Shown: piece after piece, positions 24,855 through 64,000 of the stretch | Layout of the letters: each line of letters starts with the position of its first letter | How positions within the stretch are numbered: position 1 is the stretch's first letter | Assembly (NCBI GenBank): GCA_964572155.1 | Contig: CAZNDZ010000003.1 | Span: 74,224-138,223 of the forward strand | From: an uncultured Planctomycetales bacterium | Lineage (GTDB): Bacteria; Omnitrophota; Gorgyraeia; Zapsychrales; Fredricksoniimonadaceae | Length of the DNA stretch: 64,000 nucleotides | Direction of reading: 5' to 3' | The notes under the pieces: model-generated | Database searches by the model: none | The model's input: only the letters and a program-made list of their open reading frames with translations | What the model was told of the DNA's origin: nothing | Made by a program: the position numbers and the translations under genes

Positions 24855-28140
<3,286 letters not shown>

Positions 28141-45699: not shown

Positions 45700-47345
45700 G
45701 CAATATCCTTACGTATCATTTCTTTGTTAGTAGGACTAAACACAGTGGCGACAAACTCGTATTCCCTGCGCGCTAACGCTGTTTTCGCCGCGACATCACT
45801 GTCACTAAGGGTTTTAAGCCTTTTTTCCAGTTCTTGCGCAGATGCACAACTTAACACAAAATCTGTCTGATTAAAACAAGGATTTATACGAAAAAGATCA
45901 TCCAAACATACATGAATGGCTAATTTACCTGCGTTGATCGCCATTAATCCAGCGCTTGTCGCATTAAACAAGGCCAAATCACAAGCATTTAAATCTTTTG
46001 TAAAATCCCCCGTGTCTTTAATAACCGCGCTAAATTCTTTGGTGATATCATCAAGCTGTTTTGCAAATAATGCGTCTGGTACACTCTTATATCCACGCAC
46101 CATATAGATTTTTTCTTTTAACAACATAGGTTCTGCCCGAAGCCACGACGAAAAAACGCGTAATTCATCCGGATGACTTAAGAATAACAACATTTTAAGC
46201 GGCGATCCAAAAGCCTTTTGATCTTGTGAATGGTTAGCTGATTTAGGACTGCCCCACACATGAACACTGCCTTGTGGTTTCTTTCCCCAGCTCTCAAAAA
46301 AATCCACGTAACGTCCACCACATACAGCATATTGACTAGGTTTAGGTGCCGCAGGTTTTACGTCATCTTTCATGGACAAGGCCAAATGATGCTGAGGGTG
46401 CGGCGTATACCCAATTGTCTTAACATTGCTTCCCTCACAAGCCATTAATAATGCGCGCTCATAACCTTTTTCTTCGTACGGATAGACAATGGTATCGATT
46501 TCTTGCGATGATAATAATTTCTTAACGGATTGATACACTGCCAACTCTTTAACAATTAAATTCTTTGTGTATTGTGTTAACAAAAACCGCGACCAAAAAG
46601 TCGGCGCATTGATGCCGCCAATGGTGCATGGCCGCTGCTTCCAAGAAGCAAAAAACATCATCATGTCCCATGACAATGATGCGTTGATGATAAAAAATTT
46701 ATCATCAACGGGCAATTGATCCAAAACAACAAAAGCCACCTTCGATGAATCCACATCATCAAACATATGGCCATAAAAATATTTGATCGTGTCTTCATTG
46801 GAATGTTTTGGGTCAAAACGTTCCGCAATGACACATGTTTTTTTGCCTTCAAGTGCTAACGTAAAAGACGAACGCTGACTTAACGCGAGTATCTGCTTTA
46901 GCCATTTGATTTTGAAGATGGTTTTTTCTTTGAGCCAAGAATATAAGACTGCAAAATTTATCGACGATGATCCTTGAAAATCAGCGAGGCAACCGATCAA
47001 ATCTTGCGGTGCATTGATGATATTAAGCTTTTGATTAGGATGCTGACGCTGCCATTCTAAAATAGCCCTCGCAAAAAATAAGGGTTTAAACTTTTCTTGA
47101 GCGCCCCAAGGCCTCACATCAAGGCGAGAAAATGGTGTTAACCACCACCAACGACTTTTAGCGCTTAAATCTTTGCTTAAAAGTGCGTGAGCTTGACTTA
47201 AATCTGAAAGCCATGCGTCGGCATTAGCTTGAACAATGGCGCGTATGTCAATATAACCCGCCTTATGGCCATCATCTTCTTGATAGCCATAATTTGCCCA
47301 CAAGGAACCATCTGTAGGTGCGCTTTTAACAAGATTTATGTTCAT
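45693..47345 (-). CDS. large soluble protein of unknown function; candidate CMP-sugar-dependent transferase (contains TPHPQHH motif)
   Basis: 550 aa with no TM segments. It lies immediately upstream of, and is translationally coupled to, the KdsB-like cytidylyltransferase. Confidence 0.4.
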   Translation of the reverse strand: MNINLVKSAPTDGSLWANYGYQEDDGHKAGYIDIRAIVQANADAWLSDLSQAHALLSKDLSAKSRWWWLTPFSRLDVRPWGAQEKFKPLFFARAILEWQRQHPNQKLNIINAPQDLIGCLADFQGSSSINFAVLYSWLKEKTIFKIKWLKQILALSQRSSFTLALEGKKTCVIAERFDPKHSNEDTIKYFYGHMFDDVDSSKVAFVVLDQLPVDDKFFIINASLSWDMMMFFASWKQRPCTIGGINAPTFWSRFLLTQYTKNLIVKELAVYQSVKKLLSSQEIDTIVYPYEEKGYERALLMACEGSNVKTIGYTPHPQHHLALSMKDDVKPAAPKPSQYAVCGGRYVDFFESWGKKPQGSVHVWGSPKSANHSQDQKAFGSPLKMLLFLSHPDELRVFSSWLRAEPMLLKEKIYMVRGYKSVPDALFAKQLDDITKEFSAVIKDTGDFTKDLNACDLALFNATSAGLMAINAGKLAIHVCLDDLFRINPCFNQTDFVLSCASAQELEKRLKTLSDSDVAAKTALARREYEFVATVFSPTNKEMIRKDIAC

Positions 47346-48103
47346 GAAGGGATTGCGCTTGTAAAAATCTTTTGAAAAAGTTTATCTTGCTTGATGATGC
47401 CTTCGGCAAAAGTCAAATCAGCAGGCGTATCAACGCTAATGCTATCCTTAGACAAGAAACCTTGAATGCTATAGCCATGTTCTAGGATGCGCATCATGTC
47501 CACACCTTCGATTTTCTCAAGCGGTGTCGGGGTCAAGGCAGCAAACTTTAATAAGAAATCTTTCTTAAATAAGTAGATGCCAATTTGTTTATAGGCATAG
47601 GCAAAATTTTCTTTGGATTGAATGGGGATGGGCAAACGAGAAAAATATAACACCCGTTGTTTCATATCCATGACGGTTTTAACCACGTCACGGGAAGCAA
47701 AAATATCCCAGTCTAAGATCGGCGCAACTAAATTAACACATGATAGCGACGGATACTTCTTCATCACCTCAATGGCTTGTTCTAAAGCCACTGGATCAAC
47801 CAACGGCTCATCCCCTTGCACATTGATGATGATATCAGCATCAACATTAGCAGCAGCCTCAGCAACACGATCAGTCCCGCGCACATGGTCAGGTGAGGTC
47901 ATGGCAACCTTTGCACCAAAATCTTGCGCAACCTTTTTAATGGCCTCATCGCAGGTGGCGATGATGACCTGATCAATATAGGTGCTTGTTTTTAATCGAC
48001 GGTAAACATGCTCGATCATGGGGTATCCGGCAATTTTTGCAATTGGCTTTCCTGGATAACGTGAAGACCCCATCCGTGCAGGAACAATACAGGCAACTTT
48101 CAT
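47342..48103 (-). CDS. KdsB-family cytidylyltransferase (CMP-Kdo synthetase-like)
   Basis: MKVACIVPARMGSSRYPGKPI...INVQGDEP. Confidence 0.8.
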   Translation of the reverse strand: MKVACIVPARMGSSRYPGKPIAKIAGYPMIEHVYRRLKTSTYIDQVIIATCDEAIKKVAQDFGAKVAMTSPDHVRGTDRVAEAAANVDADIIINVQGDEPLVDPVALEQAIEVMKKYPSLSCVNLVAPILDWDIFASRDVVKTVMDMKQRVLYFSRLPIPIQSKENFAYAYKQIGIYLFKKDFLLKFAALTPTPLEKIEGVDMMRILEHGYSIQGFLSKDSISVDTPADLTFAEGIIKQDKLFQKIFTSAIPS

Positions 48104-48118
48104 CTCTTTGACTCCTTG

Positions 48119-49060
48119 TTAAATATAATCAATTTGAAAATATTTCCACTGCTTTGGCTGTGCGCACAATAAGATTTCTTCTTTAAGTGATTTGCCAATG
48201 ATATTCGTCTGCCAGCGCTGTGTAAAACCAGAATCTTCTAACCAAGACTTGAGCGTATCACCCTCTGCTACCTGCACACGCACCTCTTGGGCATTGCTCT
48301 TATAGGCTAGATCGAAAGCCGCATCAAACAAATGCTGTTTGACCGCTTCATTCTTAATAAAAACCGATTCCAACATTTCTAGTCGACGAATGCCATCACG
48401 TAACGCCGTGATACCTGTAAAAGCATAGGCCACAATCTTGGCCTCTTCTTTAATCGTGATTAAGAAATATTGGTAGGCATGCTTGTAATAATGATGCATG
48501 CAAACATGGCTCCAAAAATTTGGCGTACGCTTAGGAAATCCACCCCATGAAATCATTTGCCGCTCAAAGAAGTCCAACATCTCAGGTTCCAAAGCTTTAA
48601 TGCCCTCGACAGATGAGTGAACGCTGTAATCCACTTCTATAGAAAATGGCGATACGGACTTTTTAAAAGATACCAGCGGACATAATGGTTTGTATCCATT
48701 TTTCATATACCACTGATAGGCACGCGTCCCTTCATCTTGACGATATGCTAAAACCGCCTCAGCTTCGGGGTAGAATTGGGCGATCTGACGATCCATCATC
48801 GCCCCAATGCCTTGTGAACGATATTCTGGTTGAACATGCGCACCTGTTACCCACACGACGGGTACATAGGCATCCATATTGATTTTAAATACGCGTGGTT
48901 CTAAGGGAATTAAACCAATCATGTCATTGCCTTCAAAGGCACAGACACCTTGGAGGTGGTTACCTTCCCAAGTTTCTTGTGTACGTGGGGTAGAATCAGA
49001 ACGGGATAATAGATCTAATGCTTGTGGGAGCAGTTCTTTGGTTAAGGCGCGGATTTGCAT
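48119..49060 (-). CDS. GNAT family N-acetyltransferase
   Basis: GNAT motif A VTGAHVQPEYRSQGIGAMM. 313 aa, possibly two acyl-CoA N-acyltransferase folds. Confidence 0.6.
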   Translation of the reverse strand: MQIRALTKELLPQALDLLSRSDSTPRTQETWEGNHLQGVCAFEGNDMIGLIPLEPRVFKINMDAYVPVVWVTGAHVQPEYRSQGIGAMMDRQIAQFYPEAEAVLAYRQDEGTRAYQWYMKNGYKPLCPLVSFKKSVSPFSIEVDYSVHSSVEGIKALEPEMLDFFERQMISWGGFPKRTPNFWSHVCMHHYYKHAYQYFLITIKEEAKIVAYAFTGITALRDGIRRLEMLESVFIKNEAVKQHLFDAAFDLAYKSNAQEVRVQVAEGDTLKSWLEDSGFTQRWQTNIIGKSLKEEILLCAQPKQWKYFQIDYI

Positions 49061-49069
49061 GTTTTATCT

Positions 49070-50149
49070 CTAAGAACGTTGGCGGTACCAAGGCTCAAAG
49101 GCATCGATAAATGCCTTCATGGCCGGTTGATGCCCAATGCTAATGCGAATGCATGATTCATATGGCGCTTCAAAGGAACCACGAATATAAATTTTCTTCT
49201 CGCGGAAAAATGCAACCGCATCTTTTGAATCTTGTGGTGTCTTTAAAAATACTAAAATGCCGTTGGTATAATCCCCACCATGGAAACGTAAACCCATGCG
49301 CTTAAATTGTTCTTGGATAAAACGCGCCCCCTCTTTGACTTCTTTGACATGGGCTTGCATGATGTCTGTATGATCCAACAAGTATTCCCCAACACCCATG
49401 GAAAACGTATTGGACTCAACGATCGAACGTGTTTTTGAGAAATACTCTATATTTTGTGGTTGGCTCACCATAAATCCTAAACGCAAACCTGCCCCACCAA
49501 ATGCTTTTGAAAATGTGCGCATGACAATCAAATTATCAAAACGATCAACCAGATCAAGCACTGTTTCAGCACCAAAATAATGATACGCCTCGTCTATGAT
49601 GACAATGATATTGCGCTGCTGGCAATATTCTAAAATCGGTAAGATTTCTGCCTTGGTCATGGCCGTTTCAATCGGCAAGTTTGGATTAGCAATCGCCACT
49701 ATGGCTGTTTTATCATCGATTAAACCATATAGACTTTGCACATCCACTTTTAAATCTTTGGTGACGCCTAAGGGCTTATATTTGAGTTGGAAAAATTCTG
49801 CATAAACCTTATACATCGGATACGTGGGATCAAGGACAATGATGTTCTCACCAGGATTTGTCATGGTTTCATAAATGAAACGCACGCCCTCGGTGATCCC
49901 GCAGGAAAGATAGATTTTCTTTACATCGATATTTAAATGTTTGGCAATCTTGCTATAAATCGTCGCTGCTTCGGGTGAAGCGCTGATCAAATATGGCGGG
50001 AATGACTTTAAAATGGCATCAAAAACAGCAGGCTCAAAATTGGAAACACGTTCATTGCGATCCAAACGCACGCCGTTGACCAAATCACGTCCGAGCGACG
50101 TTTGATAACGCACCATGTCTTGGATATGTTTCTTAAATCGCGCCTTCAT
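49070..50149 (-). CDS. PLP-dependent aminotransferase, class I/II (HisC/CobD-like subfamily)
   Basis: RTFSKAFGGAGLRLGF, with the PLP-binding Lys in the SK motif. Confidence 0.8.
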   Translation of the reverse strand: MKARFKKHIQDMVRYQTSLGRDLVNGVRLDRNERVSNFEPAVFDAILKSFPPYLISASPEAATIYSKIAKHLNIDVKKIYLSCGITEGVRFIYETMTNPGENIIVLDPTYPMYKVYAEFFQLKYKPLGVTKDLKVDVQSLYGLIDDKTAIVAIANPNLPIETAMTKAEILPILEYCQQRNIIVIIDEAYHYFGAETVLDLVDRFDNLIVMRTFSKAFGGAGLRLGFMVSQPQNIEYFSKTRSIVESNTFSMGVGEYLLDHTDIMQAHVKEVKEGARFIQEQFKRMGLRFHGGDYTNGILVFLKTPQDSKDAVAFFREKKIYIRGSFEAPYESCIRISIGHQPAMKAFIDAFEPWYRQRS

Positions 50150-50152
50150 TGT

Positions 50153-51127
50153 TTAAGCCCGTTCTTTTTTCTCGAAATGGGTCGCGTATTCTGGAAGCAA
50201 CGGCGTGACAGGTTCGTTTTGATTGTACATACAATTATTGCAAATGAGCCCCTTAAGGTCTTTGCATAAATGCTTGCGACGAAATTCCTTGTACGTATCA
50301 TTGCTCCAGATTTCTTTAAGTGAAGACTTATGCAAATCTCCGACGACCAAATCCTTGGAATAATCCAAAACACAAGCACTGACATAACCTTCCGGGGTGA
50401 TGGTAAAACCCTTGAAAGGTTGGAAACAAATCTCAACCTTACCACGTGCCCGTGGGCTGCCGGCTTCAATGTTGCCTAATTTGTTATTCTCATAAAGATT
50501 ACCACATTGATTATTAAGTGGATGTGGATCCCATTCATCAATGTAGGGTAAAACGATGTCGCGCAAAATATTCACCTCATCGATCGTGTGCTTGGTGTAA
50601 ACCATGGTCACGTAGATGCGATATTTTAAACCTGAGGTCTTGCGGTAATTAGAAATCCATTTTAAATTCTCAATGACCTTATCAAAATCATCCTTACCTT
50701 GAACAATCTTATATGTTTCGCGTTTACCCGCACTAATCGAGAATTTAATACTGTCTAAACCTGCATCTAAAACTTCTTTCGCACGCTCGGGTGTTGCTAG
50801 TGCACCGTTGGATGTCAAAAATAAATAGTTGAACCCAATCTTTTTAGCCAACGCCACATATTGACCTAAGTTTTTAACTAAGAATGATTCCCCTGTCGCA
50901 TATAAACCAATGTCACGTACGCCACAATCATAGGCTTCTTGCAAAACACGGGCGACCATTTCTGGTTCCATGGTTTTCTTATTCTTAATCAAAGGGTTGG
51001 AACAAAAGACACAAGCGTGATTGCAAAACGAGGTTAAATCTAAAAATATTTCCGTCGGAAATGGCGGCACCTCAACAAATGATGCCTGCATGCTTTTTTG
51101 CTTACGGTCTTTGATCGTTTCTACCAT
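50153..51127 (-). CDS. radical SAM enzyme with Cys-rich C-terminal (SPASM/twitch-like) region, paralog A
   Basis: CNHACVFC (C-x3-C-x2-C) after a PPFP motif. Additional cysteines at CFQPF, ACVLDY and CNNC. 324 aa. Confidence 0.85.
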   Translation of the reverse strand: MVETIKDRKQKSMQASFVEVPPFPTEIFLDLTSFCNHACVFCSNPLIKNKKTMEPEMVARVLQEAYDCGVRDIGLYATGESFLVKNLGQYVALAKKIGFNYLFLTSNGALATPERAKEVLDAGLDSIKFSISAGKRETYKIVQGKDDFDKVIENLKWISNYRKTSGLKYRIYVTMVYTKHTIDEVNILRDIVLPYIDEWDPHPLNNQCGNLYENNKLGNIEAGSPRARGKVEICFQPFKGFTITPEGYVSACVLDYSKDLVVGDLHKSSLKEIWSNDTYKEFRRKHLCKDLKGLICNNCMYNQNEPVTPLLPEYATHFEKKERA

Positions 51128-51148
51128 ATCTATCTCCCTAAAAAACTT

Positions 51149-52144
51149 TTATTTTTTACGCGCCACCACCCGCACATGCGAGCTTAAACGACTTTCTTGC
51201 AAAAACTGCTGCAAGGCATTGGATGTCCTGCCATGACGATGAAAGAACACGTACTTCCAAAATGGATCAACATTTGGCATGTCCTTCTTGGCCATAGCCC
51301 CTTTGACAATATCAACGTCCAAACGCCCTGGGGTACTTAATTCTAAAACTTCAAAACCAGCATTCTCTAATAAAGCCACAATAGCTTCCAATGATAGCAG
51401 ATTCATCCGATTTATGGGATTTAAATTTGGTGCATGTTCTTTTAAAACCTGATATTCAAAACCAGAACAAGACGCTGTTGTTAAGAAAAATAGTCCACCC
51501 TCTCTTAACTGATCATTTGCAACATGAACCAAAGCTTTTGGATCTGCGACGCGTTCTAAACCTTCAAAACACGTCACCATGTCAACTTGTGTTGATATGT
51601 TAGCACTTATAATCGCTATATTATCAGGTAATGCTTTGCTATTTTCATATAATTGCGGTTCTAACATGGCAATCTTGCCAAAAACATTCTGGGCCTGCAT
51701 GTGTTTAATCAAAAACGCATATTTGGTATGAACATCGACCCATAAAGGATTATTCGGTAAATATTCATCCGCCCATTCAATCATCCACGCAACCCGTGGG
51801 CCATAAATATAATATAAACGCTCGTCGGGTAAACTGGCCATTTCATGACGCCAGAATTGACACGCTTTAGATGCCTTATAAAAATGATCTAATGCATCTT
51901 GCGTTGGTCGAAAGGCCACGTACCATGATTCACAATCGCTACATTGATGATAAGCCATGCCTAAGCAATCTGTAAAGGCGCGGTTTTCTTTCTTTCCACA
52001 GCCTGTGCAAGGCACATTGACCAAAGGGGCTTTTAATAACATCTGTGTAATATCGACAGACAATAAGCGCACATATTGTTCGTACAAGGCATCATTGACA
52101 TTGCCTGGGACCACACCATCATTTGGGATAACAACTGTTTTCAT
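51149..52144 (-). CDS. class I SAM-dependent methyltransferase with N-terminal 4-Cys zinc-ribbon (architecture like TylCIII-type NDP-sugar C-methyltransferases)
   Basis: N-terminal CTGC...CSDC. MTase motifs FEGLERVADPKALV and LREGGLFFL are present, but motif I is degenerate. Confidence 0.5.
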   Translation of the reverse strand: MKTVVIPNDGVVPGNVNDALYEQYVRLLSVDITQMLLKAPLVNVPCTGCGKKENRAFTDCLGMAYHQCSDCESWYVAFRPTQDALDHFYKASKACQFWRHEMASLPDERLYYIYGPRVAWMIEWADEYLPNNPLWVDVHTKYAFLIKHMQAQNVFGKIAMLEPQLYENSKALPDNIAIISANISTQVDMVTCFEGLERVADPKALVHVANDQLREGGLFFLTTASCSGFEYQVLKEHAPNLNPINRMNLLSLEAIVALLENAGFEVLELSTPGRLDVDIVKGAMAKKDMPNVDPFWKYVFFHRHGRTSNALQQFLQESRLSSHVRVVARKK

Positions 52145-53175
52145 TACGCGTTCTTAGCCTCCGCCTTGCTTGTGTCTGCTGCGTAAATTTTCTCAATCAA
52201 CAGCATGGTCTGATAGGCATCTTCACTGGAGCCCACTTTGATCGGCGTATCATGCACGATGGCATCAATGAATTCTTTAAGCTCCATATCCCATGAATGA
52301 TCTTCATCGTAATAGTTGATGCTTTCTTCAGGATTAGGCAATGGATACCCTGCGGCATCATACAGGCAGCGTGCAATCTTTAAGGTCTCAACACCATAAT
52401 TTCTCGTCGATGACAATATACCTGAAATCGTGATATAACCTTTTTGCAAATACACTTCTAATGAGAACATGTACTTCCATTGAGTGGCAGATGAATGCAG
52501 CATCCCCACTTGGCCTTTTGAGTTACGCATCATCATAAAGGCATTATCTTCAACACCGGTTGGCCAATACTGCTCTGTGATAAATGATTTTACTTCATCA
52601 AACTCGCCACAAAAATATCGAAACAAATCAACCATGTGTATGCCTTGGTCAATTAAGATCCCGCCGCCGGAAACATCTTTTTGATTGCGCCAATTCTTAT
52701 CGTATTGACTGCCCCCGCCTTTGCCATAAACACCGCGCATCCATAAGACATTTCCTAAACGGCCTTTGGTCACAATAGCCTTGGCATCCAACACAGCTTG
52801 ATGATAGCGATGGTTAAAACCAAATTTTAGTTTTAGCTTGGGGTTTTTCTGCTCTGCAGCAATCATGGCTAGAACTTCTTCTTTGGTACGTCCAGGCGGC
52901 TTCTCTGAAAACACATGCACGCCTTGGTTTAAGAAGAAACACACAACCTCGGCCACAAATTTATTGGGAACACAAACAAAGACAATATCTGGCTTGTAGG
53001 TCATTAAATCTTTATAGTCTGTGACAACAGGCAAACCATCGACGGTATCTTTGTATTGCGGATCGAAGACCGCAACCAAACGCAATGATGGCTCATCCTT
53101 AACGCAAGCCGCTCGGATTTTCCCCATCTTGCCATAACCAACAACCGCTACTTTATAGATTTTGTCTAGGCTCAT
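52144..53175 (-). CDS. Gfo/Idh/MocA family NAD(P)-dependent sugar oxidoreductase
   Basis: N-terminal Rossmann KVAVVGYGKMG with a family-typical central EKP motif and C-terminal domain. Confidence 0.8.
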   Translation of the reverse strand: MSLDKIYKVAVVGYGKMGKIRAACVKDEPSLRLVAVFDPQYKDTVDGLPVVTDYKDLMTYKPDIVFVCVPNKFVAEVVCFFLNQGVHVFSEKPPGRTKEEVLAMIAAEQKNPKLKLKFGFNHRYHQAVLDAKAIVTKGRLGNVLWMRGVYGKGGGSQYDKNWRNQKDVSGGGILIDQGIHMVDLFRYFCGEFDEVKSFITEQYWPTGVEDNAFMMMRNSKGQVGMLHSSATQWKYMFSLEVYLQKGYITISGILSSTRNYGVETLKIARCLYDAAGYPLPNPEESINYYDEDHSWDMELKEFIDAIVHDTPIKVGSSEDAYQTMLLIEKIYAADTSKAEAKNA

Positions 53176-55393: not shown

Positions 55394-57347
55394 GGGCTAA
55401 TTGCTCCTTAAAACGCAACATGGCCTGCCCGTCTAAGTAAGCATCAACCTTGCCTTTTATATATGTATCTAAATATTGATCAAAGGCTTGATCAGACATT
55501 GCTAGTAATGCATCAATCCTTCGCGTCAGATCGTCGTACCCATGCACCACAAGCCCTGGGATCTGATCATAATCAATGCCCTGATGCTTATGACCCGACT
55601 CATACCAAAAAGCTTTTTTGCGGGCGCTTAACGCTTCTGCCGTCGGAGATGACATGCAATGGGTGATGACCACATCGCTAGCTGCAATGATGCGGTTATT
55701 AAAAGAAAAATCAACAAAGCTTTTTGCGGTTAACTCTTGGCTAATGGGCCAATACACCCTGGGATTATCCTTGATCTTCTTCCACAAACTTAAAATGGCC
55801 TCTCCTTTTTCCGGGGCCGCCGCTGGGTGGTCTGGATGACAATAGAAAGTTGGACTCTTAGATGGTTTAAAAACAAAAATATGCTTAGGATATGCGTCTA
55901 TCAATCTCAACATATCTTGATAAAAGGCTAAACAGTCGTCGAAATTTGTCCAACACGCATCCGCATTGATAAATGTCGTATCAAAAATAACAATCAATTT
56001 GCGTTGATCCACATCTGAAATCTTAGGGAAGCATTCCTGTCGGATCACAAGCGCTTGCGACTTCTTATCCATGATCATTTGTCCATATAATGAACCAATG
56101 GCTTGATAATTGCTGACATTTTGATGATGCATCTTATAATACGCAATGACATCCTGATTAAATCCAACAAAATGATCATACGATAAGAATGACCAAATAA
56201 CATTGCGCACCGAACGAACATCGTTATCTTTGGCAATGAAATACGTACCCCCCAGAAAACATGAATAATTCCACGATGTCTTTTGCTGTGTTCTCAAAAA
56301 TAAACATATAGCAGAAACTTGAATATTTTCCTGATTAGTAAAAACCAAATTCTTAAAATTAATGCGCTGTAATATCAGTCTCCAGTCACAAAATTTCTGC
56401 ATGGCAATAAAATATACCCGCCACATGGATGATGGCTCTTGAAATGAAAAACATGTTTCTAAAAGACTCTTAAAAATTGCGCCAAAGAATGACATGTCCC
56501 ATTGAGCTTTTGCTAAAGAACCCACACCATGGTCTTTTTTAATTCGATAGAAGAAATACCCTTTACTAGATTCACGTTCAATTAGTTGGTCTGATAAACC
56601 GCTGTGATCTATGAAGGCCGTATTAGATGGATGAAAGCATTTCCCATCCATCAGAAAGTCATACCCTCTATCCCCACTGCGCTCAACTTCAAGACGGGAA
56701 CCAATAAAGACGGCATGATCGAATGACGTCTTTAAAACCTTAGGCTTAAACGTCACAGCACCCAGAAAACACCCTAAAAATCGTAAGCCTACAAAAGCCA
56801 AGGCAAAGTTCTTATAACCTTCTTTACGAATAAATTCTTTGAAACTAAGCCATGGATCGTCATGAACAACAATATTGTTAGGTAATGCAGCATCATGGGC
56901 AATCGTGTCATATAAGAACTTATGCCAATAGCTAAAACGATTACTGTAAAACACGATCTTGGATTGAGGATGAATCTTGGCGAGATGCGTTAAATGATCG
57001 ACAATATAACAGAATTTAAAGATGTCTTCCGCCAGACCTCGACGAAAAAGAAAGGAAACATCTGGTACGCCATACAATGCTGCTGTTGATTTATAAACCG
57101 CAGTGCCCTCAATGTAAGGCAGCAAGCGATTCGCCAAATCAATGGCCTGCCCTTGGGCCTTGCTTAAGCCATCAATAAAAATACGCTCTAATTGTCCACT
57201 ATCTACAAAACCACGCAGGTGTTTCTTAGTCTTAACTTGAAAGTCCCAATCAAAAACCGACGGAACAACACCCTGCTTTACATAATTTTTAAAGATGGCA
57301 AAATTACTCGACGATATGTCTTCAAAAATAACAAGGTCATGGCTCAT
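55386..57347 (-). CDS. large soluble protein of unknown function; candidate transferase for the activated sugar (HP-containing motif FYCHPDHP)
   Basis: 653 aa with no TM segments. Its C-terminal ~250 aa loosely resembles TagF/capsule-synthesis-type transferases. Confidence 0.4.
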   Translation of the reverse strand: MSHDLVIFEDISSSNFAIFKNYVKQGVVPSVFDWDFQVKTKKHLRGFVDSGQLERIFIDGLSKAQGQAIDLANRLLPYIEGTAVYKSTAALYGVPDVSFLFRRGLAEDIFKFCYIVDHLTHLAKIHPQSKIVFYSNRFSYWHKFLYDTIAHDAALPNNIVVHDDPWLSFKEFIRKEGYKNFALAFVGLRFLGCFLGAVTFKPKVLKTSFDHAVFIGSRLEVERSGDRGYDFLMDGKCFHPSNTAFIDHSGLSDQLIERESSKGYFFYRIKKDHGVGSLAKAQWDMSFFGAIFKSLLETCFSFQEPSSMWRVYFIAMQKFCDWRLILQRINFKNLVFTNQENIQVSAICLFLRTQQKTSWNYSCFLGGTYFIAKDNDVRSVRNVIWSFLSYDHFVGFNQDVIAYYKMHHQNVSNYQAIGSLYGQMIMDKKSQALVIRQECFPKISDVDQRKLIVIFDTTFINADACWTNFDDCLAFYQDMLRLIDAYPKHIFVFKPSKSPTFYCHPDHPAAAPEKGEAILSLWKKIKDNPRVYWPISQELTAKSFVDFSFNNRIIAASDVVITHCMSSPTAEALSARKKAFWYESGHKHQGIDYDQIPGLVVHGYDDLTRRIDALLAMSDQAFDQYLDTYIKGKVDAYLDGQAMLRFKEQLAHG

Positions 57348-58363
57348 ATTTTGCGGTGGAAACTATTTGGATCAAAAACTACAGCCAAATCCTTATTGAG
57401 TGGTTCAATGGCATCGTTCTTATTCTTCCAACAATTGCCACACAAAGTTCCTTCTAATTTTCCTGTTAAATGCATTTTACGTAACTGGGCAACGGCATGA
57501 GAATTCCACGCTTCTTTAAGGCCAGTGACATTTAAATCTGCAGTCGCTACATAATTCTGATAATCAACGCAACACGACGTCATATAGCCTTCGGCCGTGA
57601 CATAAAAACGGTTAAAGGGCAGATTACAAATACCCTCGTGATTTTTACCTTTGGTAGGGTTCAATGCTTTCATATAGGACGCTTGGTCGCCTTGCTCAAA
57701 GAAAACCACTTCATCAACCCAAGATTCAATCATTGCCTTGAAAGATTCTTTCTCATGACGATTAAGATCCGTCACCACATAGGTTACAAATAAATATAAT
57801 GGCCTACCTAAAGTTTTGCGCACTTCTGAAAGATGTTTTAAATTCTTAAGCACTAACTCGAAATCATCTTTGCGGTGTGTTGCTAAATATGTTTCACGGC
57901 TACCGGAATTGATCGAAAACTTAATTGAATCAATCCCAGCATCCAAGATTTCTTTGACTTTCTGTGGAGTTGCTAAGGCGCCATTGCTTGAAATATATAC
58001 ATACCGATACCCCATGGCCTTTGCCTCTTTGATCAATAGCCCTAGTTCTTTATACATCAACGACTCTCCCGTCGTATAAAGACCTAATTCATCGGTCCCA
58101 AGCGCCCTTGCTTCCTTCATAACTTTCAAGATAAATGACGGGTCAATCACGCGTTTCCGTCGTGTCATGTGCGGATTCGTACAAAAAACACAGGCGTGAT
58201 TACAAGCATTGGTTACCTCCACTTCCATGGTGCGTGGAAATGGTGGATGCTCCGTATAAAAATTATTCTTTTGATTATATTCATACTGCTCTTTAGCACG
58301 CTGGCTTAATTTACCCACGGTGGTTCTCCTTATCATCTTGAAGCGATTTGATATACCCTTCAT
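57344..58363 (-). CDS. radical SAM enzyme with Cys-rich C-terminal region, paralog B
   Basis: HPPFP...VEVTNACNHACVFCTNP parallels paralog A. C-terminal cysteines at CNLPF, SCCVDY and CGNC. It overlaps the upstream cytidylyltransferase gene by 26-53 nt. Confidence 0.85.
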   Translation of the reverse strand: MKGISNRFKMIRRTTVGKLSQRAKEQYEYNQKNNFYTEHPPFPRTMEVEVTNACNHACVFCTNPHMTRRKRVIDPSFILKVMKEARALGTDELGLYTTGESLMYKELGLLIKEAKAMGYRYVYISSNGALATPQKVKEILDAGIDSIKFSINSGSRETYLATHRKDDFELVLKNLKHLSEVRKTLGRPLYLFVTYVVTDLNRHEKESFKAMIESWVDEVVFFEQGDQASYMKALNPTKGKNHEGICNLPFNRFYVTAEGYMTSCCVDYQNYVATADLNVTGLKEAWNSHAVAQLRKMHLTGKLEGTLCGNCWKNKNDAIEPLNKDLAVVFDPNSFHRKI

Positions 58364-59078
58364 TGCGGCGAATATGTTGATTGATACGCCCTAACTGAGG
58401 CTGTTGTTCTAAGAATGCTAAGATGTCATTCATGCCAAAAAAATGGTTCTTGTTATATAGCGCCTTATATATCGCTTGTATCAGCGCATAGTCTTCGGCA
58501 TTATCTAATGTCCAACGATGCTGCCCATAATCAACAGCACTTGTCACACTGGTCAATTTAAAAATCTCAGGGTGCTGTTTCAAATATGGCGTCACGTGCT
58601 CCCTTTGAGAGGGAAGCGTTGCGCTCTGCCATGCTTTTTCTAACGCATCAAATGTCATCACTTCCACATCTTCCCCATCAGGATATGTTTCTTTTATAGT
58701 ATTTGATGTGTAGTCTGACTCTGTCTTTAAATGCACCTCAATCACATGATCAATGACCGATGCATCCATCAAAGGGCAATCTGCTGTGATTCTAACCACG
58801 TGTGTTGGTCGAAATTGCTTCGCGGTCTGATAATAACGGTCTAACACATCTGTTTGTGAGCCGCGCGTGCATACAATGCCTTTTGCTGTGCACAATTCAA
58901 GCACGACATCATCATCATCCTGCTGTGTTGTCGCCACAATCACACGGTTAACCTTCTGGCTTTGAGCAACGCGCTCAACCACACGCTCAAGTACCGTTGC
59001 ACCTTCTAAATCCAAGAGCACTTTACCCGGCAATCGTGTTGCGTTCATCCTAGCTTGAATGATGGCAATGATCATCAA
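58311..59078 (-). CDS. acylneuraminate cytidylyltransferase family protein (NeuA/PseF/SpsF-like CMP-sugar synthetase)
   Basis: IIQARMNATRLPGKVL and ITADCPL. Confidence 0.75.
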   Translation of the reverse strand: MMIIAIIQARMNATRLPGKVLLDLEGATVLERVVERVAQSQKVNRVIVATTQQDDDDVVLELCTAKGIVCTRGSQTDVLDRYYQTAKQFRPTHVVRITADCPLMDASVIDHVIEVHLKTESDYTSNTIKETYPDGEDVEVMTFDALEKAWQSATLPSQREHVTPYLKQHPEIFKLTSVTSAVDYGQHRWTLDNAEDYALIQAIYKALYNKNHFFGMNDILAFLEQQPQLGRINQHIRRNEGYIKSLQDDKENHRG

Positions 59079-61009
59079 TACCAGCCCGTCGCTGACAATG
59101 TAGCTAATGAATAAAGGTTTGTAAAATCTCGCCCTTTGGCTTCTTTACCAGCAAGATAATCATCTACCAAACGATCTAAATATTTTATATCAAAATGCGA
59201 CGGGGCTAAGATATTGCGGTAAGCCCGTTGGCTTAAAACTTCTTTAAAATGAACGCTAATTCCAGAGCGGTACGTAATCTCAGCTAAAATAGAAAATCCT
59301 TCAATCGTATCATACAAATACGAATGAGGCCCCTCTTGCAATAACTTATAAGGGAATTTGATTTTGTTTTCTGCGACCCATTTTAAAGGATATTTTACAT
59401 GATTAAAATCTAAGCCACGACCCCAGCTTTCAGGTGCTTGGGACAAGAAATCAACCAAACGTTGATCGTGGAATGGCGAACGCCATTGATGGCCATTAAA
59501 CTCCAAGCAATGCTTGATCAAATTTACCGTCGATCCTTGTGAATGCATCGAATGATATAAATGACAAAACCATGCATACATGGTCTTTTCATTAAATGAT
59601 TTGGATAAATTGGGATATAGGTCTCTTAATAAATACTGCGACAACTTTCCTTGAGTCGATGACGTAAAGACAGGATTGCCCAAGGTCTTCGCAAAAGGAA
59701 TCCGTGGGGAACCATAAAACAACGGCAGTAAATAACTTTCTAACCGTTCTTGGTCACTGCCCCATTTATCCTGAAAGGCAACGCCTTCTAACATCTTTAA
59801 AAAGATTTGATATACCTTATCTTTCCCCTCAACTCCACGTTTAACCTTTTCATAAAACGAAGGGCCATACAAATAACAATTCATCTTATCGCCATACTCG
59901 GTGAAAGATTTTTGCGAATGAAAGAACGTGCAAAACTGTGAAAATCCAAAATTATGAAATGAATCGGACGTCTCTCCATTAAAGACCAATTGACCTGGTG
60001 TTGATGCTTCGGTGATACCATCCGACAATCTAGAAAAGTTAAAACCTGTAAAGCTATACATATGTTTAGAGCGCAACTTAGGTGCAACGGCTTTCCAATA
60101 CGCAATGGAACCCTTGCTTTTTAAATTCCAATCCACAATGGTTGGCTTTAAGCCATAAAACTCCCCGATTTTCTTAACCTTATTAATTTCATACGCATTA
60201 ATTTTGCCTGTTTTCTCTGAATATAACATGCTCCCCGTCGACATTTCAATGCGCTTCGAACCATACATATCAACAAGTAAACCCAATATAATAGAAGAAT
60301 CCCAACCACTTGAACTTGAAATCCATATCTTTCCTTTCACATGCTGGCTTCGCGCATGGATAGATTCTTTCAAGATCTTGTAATAATCTTCCAAATTACT
60401 TTGGTCGTATTGCTTAATCTCTCTGGGCTTGAACTGCGCAACCTTGGATGTTAAACCTTTGCTTGATAGTGTTAAAATTTCGCCCACTTTGATTTGCAAA
60501 ACATTTTTATAAATTGTTGTCCCTTTGGGCGTATACCAACCATACACCGAAAAGAAATGGGACAACATCAATTGGTCATGCACAGGTTTGACATGCGAAA
60601 ATATAAAATCTAGATTTGTTGATAGGCAAAATAAATCCTCGCTATGTGCATAAAAAGAATCTACCCTCGAATATACGTCGGTAAAAATCTCAACGCTTTG
60701 TTTTGCCTGCTGCACCACAAACCCAATGTATTGTCCTTCTAAGACTTCAATAACTTCCTTCAATGGCGCTTTAGTAAAAATCTTTTTTAAAGCCTCTTGT
60801 GGATTAGCACTTAACAACAATGCTTTCTCACCTTGACGGATATAAAACACATCGCCATACAAATAAACAACACGACCATCGGATAATTTCAAGGTGTGTG
60901 TGGCTGCGCTTGTGTTTAAATAACAGGTCCCTGCGGCACCTAAATCAACGACGGGTGTTAAGCCTTTTGCCTTACTGTGGTCTGACGTCTTTAAAAACTC
61001 TAATTCCAT
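59075..61009 (-). CDS. asparagine synthetase B-like protein (PP-loop ATP pyrophosphatase domain, glutaminase-domain Cys absent); candidate sugar-acid amidotransferase
   Basis: PP-loop ISSSSGWDSS (SGGxDSS). 644 aa. The N-terminus is MELEF rather than MCG. Confidence 0.6.
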   Translation of the reverse strand: MELEFLKTSDHSKAKGLTPVVDLGAAGTCYLNTSAATHTLKLSDGRVVYLYGDVFYIRQGEKALLLSANPQEALKKIFTKAPLKEVIEVLEGQYIGFVVQQAKQSVEIFTDVYSRVDSFYAHSEDLFCLSTNLDFIFSHVKPVHDQLMLSHFFSVYGWYTPKGTTIYKNVLQIKVGEILTLSSKGLTSKVAQFKPREIKQYDQSNLEDYYKILKESIHARSQHVKGKIWISSSSGWDSSIILGLLVDMYGSKRIEMSTGSMLYSEKTGKINAYEINKVKKIGEFYGLKPTIVDWNLKSKGSIAYWKAVAPKLRSKHMYSFTGFNFSRLSDGITEASTPGQLVFNGETSDSFHNFGFSQFCTFFHSQKSFTEYGDKMNCYLYGPSFYEKVKRGVEGKDKVYQIFLKMLEGVAFQDKWGSDQERLESYLLPLFYGSPRIPFAKTLGNPVFTSSTQGKLSQYLLRDLYPNLSKSFNEKTMYAWFCHLYHSMHSQGSTVNLIKHCLEFNGHQWRSPFHDQRLVDFLSQAPESWGRGLDFNHVKYPLKWVAENKIKFPYKLLQEGPHSYLYDTIEGFSILAEITYRSGISVHFKEVLSQRAYRNILAPSHFDIKYLDRLVDDYLAGKEAKGRDFTNLYSLATLSATGWY

Positions 61010-61032
61010 AATGCCTCCTTACGTTGCCAAAA

Positions 61033-61926
61033 TTATTTTGGCCACAACGCAACATTCAACAAATCTTCTTTCAAGAATGCAAACTCCGCTTCAATGCGGT
61101 GAAAGATATTGATATTCGACGGGGCCTGTTGCCACAATGCAACATTCTCCATCACCTGATGTTTCGACTCAGCTCCAAAAATAATATAAGCCTCTGGCCA
61201 TTTCCATTGAACATACGCTAAACACAACGCTTTTCTAGAAAGTCCTGATTCATTGGCGTATTGCTCAAGCTTCGTAACAATTTCACGTGCCATGGGAATA
61301 CGCACGGGGATCTTTTCAATTTCCATGAGGAGTAAACCTTGTAAGAAAATACTGCGCACATACACCCGCTTATTCAAACGTTTCGCTAACGCAAACACAC
61401 CAACTGCTTCAAAGCGACGATCTAAAATATTAGACGGACATTGCACAAAATCGATGTCAGGATTATTTAAAGCCTCCATGGCTTTAGACGGTGCATAAAC
61501 AGAAACTCCCAATCTTTTTACCCTACCATCATTTACCAATCCTCTTAAAGCAGCCCCTAGGCCATCGTGCCATCTGCTTAATAGGTTTTCATCATGCAAC
61601 ATGAGCCCATCAATGCATGATATATTAAGATCCATCAAAGACCGATCGACCGACGCTGTGACATTAGATAGATCATTGATATCTAGTTTAGGATCAAGCT
61701 TTGTCATAACATCAACACGCTCACTCAACCCCAATCGCATCAATGCATCACCCAGAACCTGTTCGCTGTCACCATAACCTTGAGCAGTATCAAAATCTTT
61801 GATACCACTAACCCATGCAGCACGGATAATATCATCCACTGCATCTTGAGACGGTTTTCCTAAGACATTATTAATGCCATAAGCTAATCCTAATTGTGCC
61901 GTTCCAAGAACAAGATGATCAGTCAT
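61033..61926 (-). CDS. aldo/keto reductase
   Basis: The N-terminal GTAQLGLAYG signature. 297 aa. Confidence 0.8.
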   Translation of the reverse strand: MTDHLVLGTAQLGLAYGINNVLGKPSQDAVDDIIRAAWVSGIKDFDTAQGYGDSEQVLGDALMRLGLSERVDVMTKLDPKLDINDLSNVTASVDRSLMDLNISCIDGLMLHDENLLSRWHDGLGAALRGLVNDGRVKRLGVSVYAPSKAMEALNNPDIDFVQCPSNILDRRFEAVGVFALAKRLNKRVYVRSIFLQGLLLMEIEKIPVRIPMAREIVTKLEQYANESGLSRKALCLAYVQWKWPEAYIIFGAESKHQVMENVALWQQAPSNINIFHRIEAEFAFLKEDLLNVALWPK

Positions 61927-61930
61927 TATA

Positions 61931-63247
61931 TTATGTAACTCTTTTAAACCCAGCTGCCGAAGGCTTTCCTTTTAAGGCGCGTGATAATTGGCCTTTTTTT
62001 GCTAACAATGCCATGCGTGTAAAAATAATTTCCGTTGCTTTTAAATATGCCTTCACATGCTGCGGTGTATGTGCATACATCGGATAAAATATATTCGATG
62101 CTAAGAAACCTGCTTTTAGCATCTCTTGAACATAATATGCTTTCATGGTCAAATGCATTGATCCGTCAAAGGTGAAATGACTCAGTGGCTCGATACCACC
62201 GACATGAATAGATAACCCTGCTTTTTTAGCAGCCTGTTGCCAACCATCTTGCACCATGCGGCCCATACGTACCAAATGCGCACCGACATTTTTCTGACGA
62301 TGTTTCTTAATCGTTGCTAAGGCCGCCACAAACCCAACCCGTTCGGTCCACATCGTCGAGCTTATAAACGATTCTTCTGCTGCTTCCATGACATTGCCCT
62401 TGCCAATGATCGCTGCAATAGGAAAACCATTGCCCATGGCTTTAGAAAATACTGCCATATCCGGTGTGACCTTATAATGCATATGCATGCCACTAGTGTA
62501 ACAACGAAAACCACTTGAAACTTCATCAAAGATAAACACAGCGCCATGTGCCGCGGCCAACTTCTTGACCGCTGCTAAGAATCCTGGCAATGGGGCAATA
62601 TTACGGATTGGTTCCATAACAACCGCAGCTACTTGACCACGATTTTTGATTAAGATCTGCTTTAATTCATCTATTTTATTGTAACCAAATGGCAATGCGG
62701 TTCCTTGCAAGCCTTTAGGAACACCGACGGGACTTAGTCCGGGTAATAAATGTTCACCCAACGCATTAGCGGTACCTAAATTTGCCGCCAAGTACCAATC
62801 ATGCCATCCATGATAGCCGCATATGGCTACTTTATCTTTCTTGGTATAGGCACGGGCAATGCGTACAGCCACAGCCATAGCCTCTCCACCGCAACGCGTA
62901 AAACGCACTTTCTTCGCCCATGGATGGATATCACATAACATTTGGGCAAGATCTACTTCTTCGGCACAATTCAATGAAGAACTTGACCCGTTGTTAACAG
63001 CTGCTATGACCGCACGATTAACATCAGGATCAGCATACCCTAAAACATTTGCGCCAATTCCTGCGATGCTCATGTCGATATATTTATTACCATCTAAATC
63101 CCAAACATGAACACCTTCGGCTTTTTTATAATAGGCCGGCCAAACACCCAACGAAAACATATCGGGGCGTTTTGATAATAATTGGGACATCCCAGGTATT
63201 AATTGTGCTGCTTGTCTTTGATATTGGAGTGAACGTCTTGTGGACAT
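61931..63247 (-). CDS. class III PLP-dependent aminotransferase (GSA-aminomutase-like fold)
   Basis: FDEVSSGFR..G and an AVFSKAMGNGFPIAA region containing the PLP Lys. Confidence 0.85.
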   Translation of the reverse strand: MSTRRSLQYQRQAAQLIPGMSQLLSKRPDMFSLGVWPAYYKKAEGVHVWDLDGNKYIDMSIAGIGANVLGYADPDVNRAVIAAVNNGSSSSLNCAEEVDLAQMLCDIHPWAKKVRFTRCGGEAMAVAVRIARAYTKKDKVAICGYHGWHDWYLAANLGTANALGEHLLPGLSPVGVPKGLQGTALPFGYNKIDELKQILIKNRGQVAAVVMEPIRNIAPLPGFLAAVKKLAAAHGAVFIFDEVSSGFRCYTSGMHMHYKVTPDMAVFSKAMGNGFPIAAIIGKGNVMEAAEESFISSTMWTERVGFVAALATIKKHRQKNVGAHLVRMGRMVQDGWQQAAKKAGLSIHVGGIEPLSHFTFDGSMHLTMKAYYVQEMLKAGFLASNIFYPMYAHTPQHVKAYLKATEIIFTRMALLAKKGQLSRALKGKPSAAGFKRVT

Positions 63248-63255
63248 ATGGCCTC

Positions 63256-64000
63256 TTAAAACTGCCGGATTAATTTTGGTTTTTGACTTGGTAAATCACC
63301 TGACAATACATGTTTGACCATATCATCATTAAAAAGTTCATAATTCACCCGCAAATGATGAGGTTTAAAGTCACTGATCAAGAAATTCTTACCCGTCGAT
63401 GTTTGTGGGAAAGTCTGCCACGCCCCATCATTTTTCAAAATTTGCAACAATCGAATCAAATCTTGTGTCGCAGCCAGAACGGTCTTACAACCCACATCAT
63501 GAATGCCATCATCTATCAACAAATCCGGTACGGTTTGATGTATGACATCACCGGCATCAGGTTCTGATACGATGCGATGAAATGTTGCCCCTGCTGATAA
63601 TGGGTCCATATAATAGAATGGCCAAAATAATGTGGCTGCCCCTCGATACCGCGGTGATAAACCTAAATGCATATTGACGGTGTGTTTGGGCAAGACGGAA
63701 TACAACGGGTCTTTGACAAGGCCGCTGCCAAATATCAAAACGATGTCAGGTTGAATTTTATTTACAAAGTCAATGCTAGCTTGAGCGTTTAATGCTTCAG
63801 GAATAACCTTAATTGACGGACAATTAGGTGCCAACACTTCTCCAAAATACTTCTTCTCAGCAATGTCTCTTTTCTTAAAATGCAATTCAAAATTCTTAGC
63901 ATCACGTGGGGATGTATTTGCCGGCGGAACAGGGATAATATTTTCTCGCTGCACAATGATATGCCCTGCTAAAGGAAACACTTTATTAACTTCACTAAAA
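63256..64000 (-). CDS. formyltransferase (Fmt/ArnA N-domain-like); the 5' end lies beyond the window end
   Basis: PDIVLIFGSGLV...NMHLGLSPRYRGAATLFW matches the formyl_trans_N catalytic HxSLLPxxRG motif. There is no in-frame stop up to position 64000. Confidence 0.7.
   Translation of the reverse strand, partial: FSEVNKVFPLAGHIIVQRENIIPVPPANTSPRDAKNFELHFKKRDIAEKKYFGEVLAPNCPSIKVIPEALNAQASIDFVNKIQPDIVLIFGSGLVKDPLYSVLPKHTVNMHLGLSPRYRGAATLFWPFYYMDPLSAGATFHRIVSEPDAGDVIHQTVPDLLIDDGIHDVGCKTVLAATQDLIRLLQILKNDGAWQTFPQTSTGKNFLISDFKPHHLRVNYELFNDDMVKHVLSGDLPSQKPKLIRQF

Follow-up and report, generated by a model that had tools for sequence, protein, structure and literature searches.

The 64,000-nt stretch of Candidatus Omnitrophota contig CAZNDZ010000003.1 that we analyzed (here called the window) contains the upstream part of a surface-polysaccharide operon of about 45 kb. 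On balance, we think it probable that this operon encodes two independent routes to sugar acids activated with cytidine monophosphate (CMP), referred to here as modules A and B, and that module B is a self-contained cassette, centered on a class II HpcH/HpaI pyruvate aldolase, that is analogous to the pathway for 3-deoxy-D-manno-octulosonate (Kdo). Judging from its genes, module A appears to be a variant of the known NeuB-type pathways, and module B would function like the Kdo and sialic acid pathways while doing without their defining phosphoenolpyruvate (PEP)-dependent synthase. To our knowledge, every route so far established to a keto-acid sugar activated with CMP (Kdo; sialic, legionaminic, and pseudaminic acids; and ketodeoxynononic acid, or Kdn) uses the PEP-dependent enzymes KdsA or NeuB, and genome mining for such sugars depends on these two enzymes as markers. 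A preliminary description of the window had placed all of the genes at 47342-64000 in a single pathway, in which one aldolase-built sugar acid was decorated by every tailoring enzyme of the region.

A NeuB-family synthase gene lies just beyond the window end

The genes of the window form one long minus-strand run. Housekeeping genes (rpoD, dnaG, smc, fabV, an opp transporter, secG, tpiA, and pgk) occupy 1-24806, and the surface-polysaccharide locus extends from 24855 to past 64000. Relatives of the window's RpoD with 74-87% identity belong, wherever they are named, to Candidatus Omnitrophota; we therefore rejected an origin in Leptospira, which the spiro-SPASM and LIC_10190 matches described below and the one-strand arrangement of the locus had suggested. 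The 22 genes at 40812-64000 are separated by gaps of only -32 to +23 nt, and both modules are probably cotranscribed, yet evolutionarily separable. We assigned domains with Pfam and NCBIfam scans of the minus-strand window open reading frames (ORFs) of at least 120 aa. These scans recovered every gene class listed in the preliminary description for 47342-64000, all on the minus strand, as well as two genes in that region that it had not mentioned, a Wzx flippase gene (53936-55393) and a gene for a PFTS-motif protein (55386-57347).

The preliminary description had reported that the window holds no NeuB- or KdsA-type synthase, and our searches agreed: the scanned ORFs contained no NeuB or DAHP_synth_1 (KdsA) domain, and tblastn searches of the window with five NeuB-family proteins returned no match at an E value of ≤1. 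It had also allowed that a NeuB homolog might lie past 64 kb, which is where we found one. An exact-protein lookup of the class III aminotransferase of module A identified two contigs, L084 and L085, that run across the window end. L085 is 100% identical to window positions 64000-56874 and extends 2.0 kb past the end, while L084 is 99.03% identical to positions 64000-52712 and extends 9.2 kb past it; the two contigs are collinear, with 99.7% identity to each other. Going upstream from the formyltransferase, L084 encodes a DUF4910/DUF2172 protein, two GNATs with weak matches to PseH, a NeuB+SAF synthase, a methyltransferase, an RmlD-like reductase, PseB, and a MarR-type exopolysaccharide regulator. 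The synthase scored 266 bits against the NeuB model (cutoff, 399.65) and 244 bits against the PseI model (cutoff, 340.25), placing it under both equivalog cutoffs. The PseB equivalog, at 2639-3667 in this 99%-identical strain and outside the window, scored 491.9 bits against a cutoff of 407.75. Projected onto window coordinates, NeuB would lie at about 66.4-67.5 kb, some 2.4-3.5 kb past the end, and PseB would lie at about 69.6-70.6 kb, some 5.6-6.6 kb past it. The "missing NeuB" of the window is an edge effect of the window.

Since NeuB and PseB are found upstream of the formyltransferase, we assign the genes at 55386-64000 to a NeuB-dependent pathway, predicted to be a PEP-dependent, non-canonical route to a nonulosonic acid. 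With these two genes upstream, the second cytidylyltransferase is accounted for, as are the tailoring genes for formyl, amino, and amide groups, and the idea of one aldolase-built sugar decorated by all of these enzymes is not supported. The preliminary description had itself named neuB and pseB genes just outside the window as evidence that would speak against its proposal. They do so for the 55386-64000 half but not for module B, which contains no NeuB or KdsA of its own. The genes of module A within the window are as follows.

55386-57347, minus strand: PFTS-motif polysaccharide biosynthesis protein, 653 aa (TIGR04417, E value of 8e-17; PF27878 in L084)
57344-58318, minus strand: radical S-adenosylmethionine (SAM)/SPASM enzyme 2, a paralogue of enzyme 1 in module B (324-aa gene call from L084)
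58311-59075, minus strand: second cytidylyltransferase, a divergent CTP_transf_3 protein (CTP_transf_3, 127 bits)
59075-61009, minus strand: 644-aa protein with an SSGWDSS PP-loop-like motif (weak AsnB match)
61033-61926, minus strand: aldo/keto reductase (Pfam/NCBIfam)
61931-63247, minus strand: class III (glutamate-1-semialdehyde-aminomutase-like) aminotransferase (Pfam/NCBIfam)
63256-64000, minus strand: formyltransferase, cut by the window end (full length in L084, 264 aa)

Module A has several components in common with the pseudaminic, legionaminic, and neuraminic acid pathways, namely, a PseB equivalog, a synthase of the NeuB family, GNATs that weakly resemble PseH, and a cytidylyltransferase of the CTP_transf_3 type, and both modules are predicted to end, as those pathways do, in a CMP-activated keto-acid sugar. 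Unlike them, it lacks DegT/PseC and carries in its stead a class III aminotransferase and an RmlD-like reductase; no DegT_DnrJ_EryC1 (PseC-type) domain was detected within the window or along the 9.2 kb that L084 adds upstream of it. No family match to PseG turned up in the approximately 18 kb of module A, in scans that included no dedicated PseG test and did not cover the folds of the 644-aa and 653-aa proteins.

Several module A assignments in the preliminary description held only in part. The second synthetase, which had been called NeuA/PseF-like, does contain a CTP_transf_3 domain, but the NCBIfam scan gave no match to a NeuA or PseF model, and its closest solved structure is the uncharacterised 6oew (E value of 3.9e-40). 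The proposed AsnB-like amidotransferase has the SSGWDSS motif (residues 231-237) and a partial, 21-bit match to AsnB, with nothing beyond these to identify it as such and no N-terminal Cys. A sequence search of the PDB gave no match for this 644-aa protein and no useful match for the 653-aa protein. The formyltransferase had been listed from a reading frame truncated by the window end.

The class III aminotransferase has a 52%-identical homologue adjoining a CTP_transf_3-NeuB fusion in another genome (locus L001). This fusion, a 602-aa protein with CTP_transf_3, NeuB, and SAF domains (L001 4900-6708), is encoded immediately upstream of a further copy of the aldolase cassette. The genes for cytidylyltransferase 2 and radical SAM enzyme 2 (57344-59075) overlap, and their products match positions 20-227 and 221-379 of the TIGR04321 spiro-SPASM profile. 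They do so as two separate genes scoring 43 and 40 bits against a cutoff of 250, and not as the single-polypeptide fusion that defines this family. The pair resembles a split form of the uncharacterised spiro-SPASM protein, and its radical SAM type is duplicated in module B (50153-51127); enzymes 1 and 2 are paralogues with a common CNHACVFC motif.

Module B is a cassette that recurs in other genomes

Module B runs from 53939 down to 40812, and the lower limit of 47342 in the preliminary description cut it in half. The start of the aldolase, which had been placed at 54020, is at 53939, giving a 255-aa protein that is 100% identical to protein P0001. The genes are listed in the order in which they occur along the minus strand.

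53172-53939, minus strand: class II pyruvate aldolase of the HpcH/HpaI family, 255 aa, belonging to a distinct subfamily marked by a GLARAQGYG loop (PF03328, 143 bits)
52144-53175, minus strand: Gfo/Idh/MocA NAD(P)-dependent sugar oxidoreductase, or GFO (Pfam; closest solved structures, inositol/sugar dehydrogenases)
51149-52144, minus strand: methyltransferase (Methyltransf_23) with an N-terminal CxxC...CxxC zinc-ribbon-like motif (Pfam and motif)
50153-51127, minus strand: radical SAM/SPASM enzyme 1, with CNHACVFC, restricted to cassettes of the amino-sugar version
49070-50149, minus strand: HisC-like class I/II aminotransferase (Pfam/NCBIfam)
48119-49060, minus strand: GNAT-like acyltransferase, 313 aa (weak GNAT match)
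47342-48103, minus strand: KdsB-family cytidylyltransferase, or CMP-ulosonic acid synthetase (TIGR00466 and PRK13368, above cutoffs)
45693-47345, minus strand: GT-B fold glycosyltransferase, 550 aa, a likely CMP-sugar transferase (predicted structure)
44869-45699, minus strand: FkbM-family methyltransferase (Pfam/NCBIfam)
43793-44869, minus strand: NanM-type putative sugar O-methyltransferase (TIGR04371, 101.8 bits versus a cutoff of 44)
43072-43824, minus strand: CmoA-like SAM-dependent methyltransferase (149.9 bits, below the cutoff of 193)
42453-43070, minus strand: GmhA-like SIS sugar-phosphate isomerase (gmhA, 110 bits)
41557-42447, minus strand: D-2-hydroxyacid dehydrogenase, phosphoglycerate dehydrogenase (PGDH)-like (Pfam/NCBIfam)
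40812-41579, minus strand: inositol monophosphatase (IMPase)-family phosphatase (Pfam/NCBIfam)

Between the two modules lies the gene for the Wzx-type flippase (53936-55393, minus strand), which overlaps the aldolase start by 4 nt.

A common gene order was found in loci L001, L003, L004, L005, L090, and L092: HpcH, GFO, methyltransferase, radical SAM, aminotransferase, GNAT, KdsB-like, glycosyltransferase, and FkbM, followed farther on by SIS, 2-hydroxyacid dehydrogenase, and IMPase. The full set includes a glycosyltransferase of about 550-600 aa, a NanM-type O-methyltransferase after FkbM, and sometimes a further methyltransferase before SIS. Locus L091 contains the same gene families in a different order, with no Methyltransf_23 gene called, and this nearly identical membership in a shuffled order is good evidence that the cassette is a functional unit. 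The HisC-like aminotransferase is kept in L001, L003-L005, and L090-L092, and the GNAT follows it in every cassette locus compared; FkbM is kept after the glycosyltransferase in L001, L003, L004, and L090-L092; and radical SAM enzyme 1 shows 88-90% identity in L001 and L003. In 34 of 83 loci, a homologue of the Methyltransf_23 gene comes after the KdsB-like gene. We also noted the cassette in L088 (GCA_013558375.1, JACCDG011832379.1), a 229-kb contig of an NCBI assembly, where the 550-aa glycosyltransferase is identical to that of the window; contig numbers in this assembly exceed 11 million, and its carrier may have entered so large an assembly as a contaminant or a symbiont.

The aldolase itself is far more widespread than this set of loci. 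A search with a subfamily profile identified relatives in at least 568 stretches of species-representative genomes. Among the best 80 of these, from which we took the taxonomy, the bacterial carriers belong to Planctomycetota, Desulfobacterota, Bdellovibrionota, Chloroflexota (Dehalococcoidia), Nitrospirota, Omnitrophota, Patescibacteria, Actinobacteria, Clostridia, Ignavibacteria, Elusimicrobia, Acidobacteria, Nitrosomonas, and Campylobacterota, and the archaeal carriers belong to Hadarchaeia and Methanoperedens. The presence of monoderm and archaeal carriers (Dehalococcoidia, Clostridia, Actinobacteria, Patescibacteria, Hadarchaeia, and Methanoperedens) argues against the Kdo of lipid A as the product.

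We counted the genes that accompany the aldolase in the 53 loci that have at least 5 kb of sequence on each side of it.

Any CTP_transf_3 cytidylyltransferase, within 5 kb of the aldolase: 50/53
KdsB-like cytidylyltransferase, within 5 kb: 40/53
Other CTP_transf_3 type only, within 5 kb: 10/53
PGDH-like 2-hydroxyacid dehydrogenase, within 8 kb: 43/53
HAD or IMPase phosphatase, within 8 kb: 28/53
3-Dehydroquinate-synthase (DHQS)-like protein, within 8 kb: 12/53
Phosphatase or DHQS-like protein, within 8 kb: 40/53
GFO oxidoreductase, within 8 kb: 25/53
SIS isomerase, within 8 kb: 17/53
613-aa or 550-aa glycosyltransferase family, within 10 kb: 19/53
NeuB, within 10 kb: 9/53

If the aldolase builds a sugar that is then activated with CMP, it should almost always be found beside a gene of the CMP-sugar-synthetase family, and this is what the first of these counts shows. 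The proposal in the preliminary description that an aldolase forms an ulosonic acid thus finds support by association for module B, which contains neither NeuB nor KdsA; it does not extend to the genes at 55386-64000. Two layouts recurred. In the first, HpcH and KdsB are followed by an optional methyltransferase, a 2-hydroxyacid dehydrogenase, an optional cyclase, HAD, a short-chain dehydrogenase (SDR), and a glycosyltransferase; in the second, they are followed by a methyltransferase, GFO, SIS, a 2-hydroxyacid dehydrogenase, and then either IMPase or an adh_short protein with a DHQS-like protein. The phosphatase slot at other loci is filled by a HAD phosphatase or by this adh_short and DHQS-like pair, and minimal loci (L020, L024, and L030) contain only the aldolase, a cytidylyltransferase, and SDRs. 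Compared with these, the cassette of the window is a rarer, amino-sugar version that adds the radical SAM/SPASM enzyme, the HisC-like aminotransferase, the GNAT, and extra methyltransferases.

Two variations around the aldolase were noted in particular loci. In L010, L014, L018, L023, L032, L037, L047, L057, L060, L065, and L069, a short-chain dehydrogenase and a DHQS-like protein replace the phosphatase, which hints at phosphate elimination or carbocycle formation on an intermediate like 3-deoxy-D-arabino-heptulosonate 7-phosphate. In L072, L073, and L075 (Nitrosomonas) and in L043, L044, L057, and L080, a 6-phosphogluconolactonase/NagB-family protein is encoded beside the block of 2-hydroxyacid dehydrogenase, SDR, and HAD genes, which fits an oxidative branch from a sugar phosphate to a 2-keto acid.

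Key enzymes of module B

The aldolase matches PF03328 with 143 bits (cutoff, 25) over profile positions 3-214 of 221, and it falls under the cutoffs of the catabolic equivalogs (HpaI, 201.5 versus 368.8 bits; GarL, 174.3 versus 406.75; RhmA, 162.5 versus 441). Its residues D42, E44, H45, R70, E148, and D174 do not vary among 22 members of the subfamily and align with the catalytic and metal residues D42, E44, H45, R70, E149, and D175 of HpaI (4b5s). The closest solved relatives, YfaU, GarL, and HpaI, act on 2-keto-3-deoxy sugar acids or diacids. In the reaction of these enzymes, which runs both ways, a 2-keto-3-deoxy sugar acid stands on one side and pyruvate with an aldehyde on the other; they are catabolic and found in degradation operons. 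The module B aldolase has the fold and the catalytic residues (H45, R70, E149, and D175 in HpaI numbering) in common with HpaI, GarL, and YfaU (RhmA). It differs from them in its sub-cutoff scores, in its occurrence in glycan biosynthesis loci beside a cytidylyltransferase, and in the GLARAQGYG signature of its subfamily, a loop that is different in HpaI. A pyruvate-dependent aldol condensation with a free aldose to give an ulosonic acid is also what N-acetylneuraminate lyase (NanA) carries out when run synthetically, although NanA is a class I (Schiff-base) enzyme of the dihydrodipicolinate synthase family, and we know of no case in which it serves as a biosynthetic route in bacterial glycan operons.

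The KdsB-like enzyme scored 171.5 bits against TIGR00466 (cutoff, 155.2) and 285.7 bits against PRK13368 (cutoff, 255). It clears the cutoff of the kdsB equivalog and those of three KdsB subfamilies, which establishes membership by sequence and not the substrate, and its closest solved structure is the capsule CMP-Kdo synthetase KpsU (1gq9; E value of 3e-46).

The 550-aa protein encoded next to it is particular to the amino-sugar version of the cassette; it matched no Pfam or NCBIfam model and has only 26 homologues in 5.8 billion proteins. Its AlphaFold2 model (predicted local distance difference test, 90.7; predicted template modeling score, 0.89) gave Foldseek matches to GT-B glycosyltransferases, and hhalign links it, with a probability of 99.5%, to a family of 613-aa proteins encoded in 19 other aldolase loci. 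Given this predicted structure, the protein is likely the transferase for the CMP-sugar.

For three other enzymes, namely, GFO, the HisC-like aminotransferase, and the 2-hydroxyacid dehydrogenase, sequence searches of the PDB returned generic family members only. The methyltransferase at 43072-43824 resembles the carboxy-SAM synthase CmoA, and it is conceivable that it supplies a carboxymethyl donor instead of a methyl donor.

Predicted pathway of module B and alternatives

From its gene associations, we propose that module B is a portable, non-orthologous analogue of the Kdo pathway in which the aldolase makes the sugar backbone. The GmhA-like SIS protein, the PGDH-like 2-hydroxyacid dehydrogenase, and the IMPase-type phosphatase would make small precursors from phosphorylated central metabolites, and the class II HpcH aldolase would condense an aldehyde or aldose with pyruvate (or hydroxypyruvate), so that the product, a 4-hydroxy-2-oxo acid, would be a 2-ulosonic acid. 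In the version encoded in the window, this sugar acid may then be oxidized by GFO, the radical SAM/SPASM enzyme, or both, transaminated by the HisC-like enzyme, N-acylated by the GNAT, and methylated several times. Activation with cytidine triphosphate by the KdsB-family enzyme and transfer by the 550-aa GT-B enzyme would complete the pathway. Hydroxypyruvate could come from 3-phosphoglycerate via the PGDH-like enzyme and a phosphatase; as candidates, this donor and the acceptors tartronate semialdehyde and heptose phosphate are not separable by sequence.

Module B shares with the Kdo pathway (KdsD/KdsA/KdsC/KdsB, with KpsF/KpsU in capsule loci) a sugar-phosphate isomerase, a step predicted to form a carbon-carbon bond and yield a 2-keto acid sugar, a phosphatase, and a CMP-transferase of the KdsB family. 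It has no KdsA (DAHP_synth_1), and the class II HpcH pyruvate aldolase stands in its place; nor does it have the NeuB-type enzyme of the pseudaminic, legionaminic, and neuraminic acid pathways. Its isomerase is GmhA-like and has no CBS domain, and its phosphatase is of the IMPase type, with no HAD (KdsC-type) protein in the window locus. It also adds a dehydrogenase, an aminotransferase, a GNAT, a radical SAM enzyme, and methyltransferases, and it occurs in lineages without lipopolysaccharide.

A broader claim, to which we give somewhat less than an even chance, is that the pairing of an HpcH aldolase with a KdsB-like enzyme, together with the accessory dehydrogenase, isomerase, and phosphatase, represents a widespread and unrecognised route to CMP-ulosonic acids that is independent of PEP and of NeuB/KdsA and that leads to new products. 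Such a route would be distributed across bacteria of more than 15 phyla and some archaea. Its products would possibly be 3-hydroxy or dicarboxylic (ulosaric) acids, and the Omnitrophota version would be an N-acylated, multiply methylated amino derivative. If this is true, a whole class of surface sugars currently escapes annotation, and the aldolase and cytidylyltransferase would be a natural pair for biocatalysis of activated sugar acids. Our literature search found no description of an aldolase-cytidylyltransferase cassette. A 2026 preprint reports unexplained CMP-linked alpha-keto acids detected in environmental bacteria by mass spectrometry (bioRxiv 10.64898/2026.04.20.719630), which indicates that such chemistry is still open, and the products of a new route would be candidates for these compounds of environmental microbes.

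Several points weigh against this interpretation of the two modules and of the cassette. The role of the aldolase is deduced from its gene neighborhood, and the near-universal 2-hydroxyacid dehydrogenase and the frequent GFO lack a clear place in a simple Kdo-like scheme. The adh_short and DHQS-like proteins that take the phosphatase slot at some loci are likewise unexplained by the model. Aldol additions of the class II type with pyruvate can run in either direction and normally serve catabolism. If the genome has housekeeping kdsA, kdsC, and kdsD genes elsewhere, these could feed Kdo to the KdsB-like enzyme. For module A, NeuB was seen in the 99%-identical strain, while the 100%-identical contig reaches just 2 kb past the window end.

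In an alternative reading, the aldolase does not form the backbone. It might instead yield a small 4-hydroxy-2-oxo acid, which the HisC-like enzyme and the GNAT would convert to an amino-acid-like side chain, or a mere precursor, and the KdsB-like enzyme would then activate an ulosonic acid supplied by housekeeping KdsA or by an oxidative route. The latter would lead from an aldose phosphate to an aldonate (GFO/SDR), to a 2-keto-aldonate (2-hydroxyacid dehydrogenase), and finally to the dephosphorylated product. HisC-type aminotransferases normally use alpha-keto acids or ketones beside a phosphate ester, and the combination of GFO/SDR, 2-hydroxyacid dehydrogenase, and phosphatase, joined in some loci by a hydrolase of the Pgl or cyclase family, is consistent with a sugar phosphate being oxidized to a 2-keto acid in an Epd/PdxB-like manner. 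Yet most aldolase loci have no aminotransferase and GNAT, while the aldolase and cytidylyltransferase genes usually directly adjoin, and the minimal loci consist of these two genes and SDRs. We therefore consider this explanation unlikely.

Also improbable, in our estimation, is that module B makes authentic or lightly modified CMP-Kdo for a capsule or O-antigen, with the aldolase (acting on pyruvate and arabinose 5-phosphate), SIS, and IMPase proteins replacing KdsA, KdsD, and KdsC, respectively. In favor of this reading, the cassette includes an isomerase, an enzyme for carbon-carbon bond formation, a phosphatase, and a cytidylyltransferase, and the last of these falls in the KdsB family, with KpsU as its closest solved relative. 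The 205-aa SIS protein, on the other hand, is GmhA-like (110 bits) and not KpsF/KdsD-like (19 bits against the kpsF model). Moreover, the 2-hydroxyacid dehydrogenase, GFO, aminotransferase, GNAT, radical SAM enzyme, and four to five methyltransferases would be superfluous for making Kdo, and the cassette is also found in archaea and monoderm bacteria.

The single pathway of the preliminary description, in which one aldolase-built ulosonic acid would be formylated, amidated, reduced, methylated, and activated by the genes at 47342-64000, draws on the tight packing of these genes in one operon and on the absence of NeuB and KdsA from the window, but it is very hard to reconcile with NeuB and PseB just upstream in strains 99-100% identical to the window, with the many aldolase-cassette loci (most of them) that carry no module A gene, with a cassette that reaches 40812 and so lies partly outside 47342-64000, and with the presence of one cytidylyltransferase per module.

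Other features of the window

A few further features of the window lie outside the two modules. The housekeeping region includes an 846-aa ORF (10331-12871) with no Pfam match. The polysaccharide locus contains two Wzy_C-type proteins, which are O-antigen polymerase or ligase-like, at 24855-26210 and 38178-39737, the second being a weak match. Two large membrane proteins are encoded in tandem at 31036-32946 (636 aa) and 32953-34530 (525 aa); they have no Pfam match and weak matches to the LIC_10190 (Leptospira) family, and they may be polymerase- or ligase-like paralogues. Finally, an ORF6N-domain protein, with a domain of the phage/antirepressor type, is encoded within the locus at 30371-30916, flanked by gaps of about 65 and 119 nt that are among the widest in the locus.

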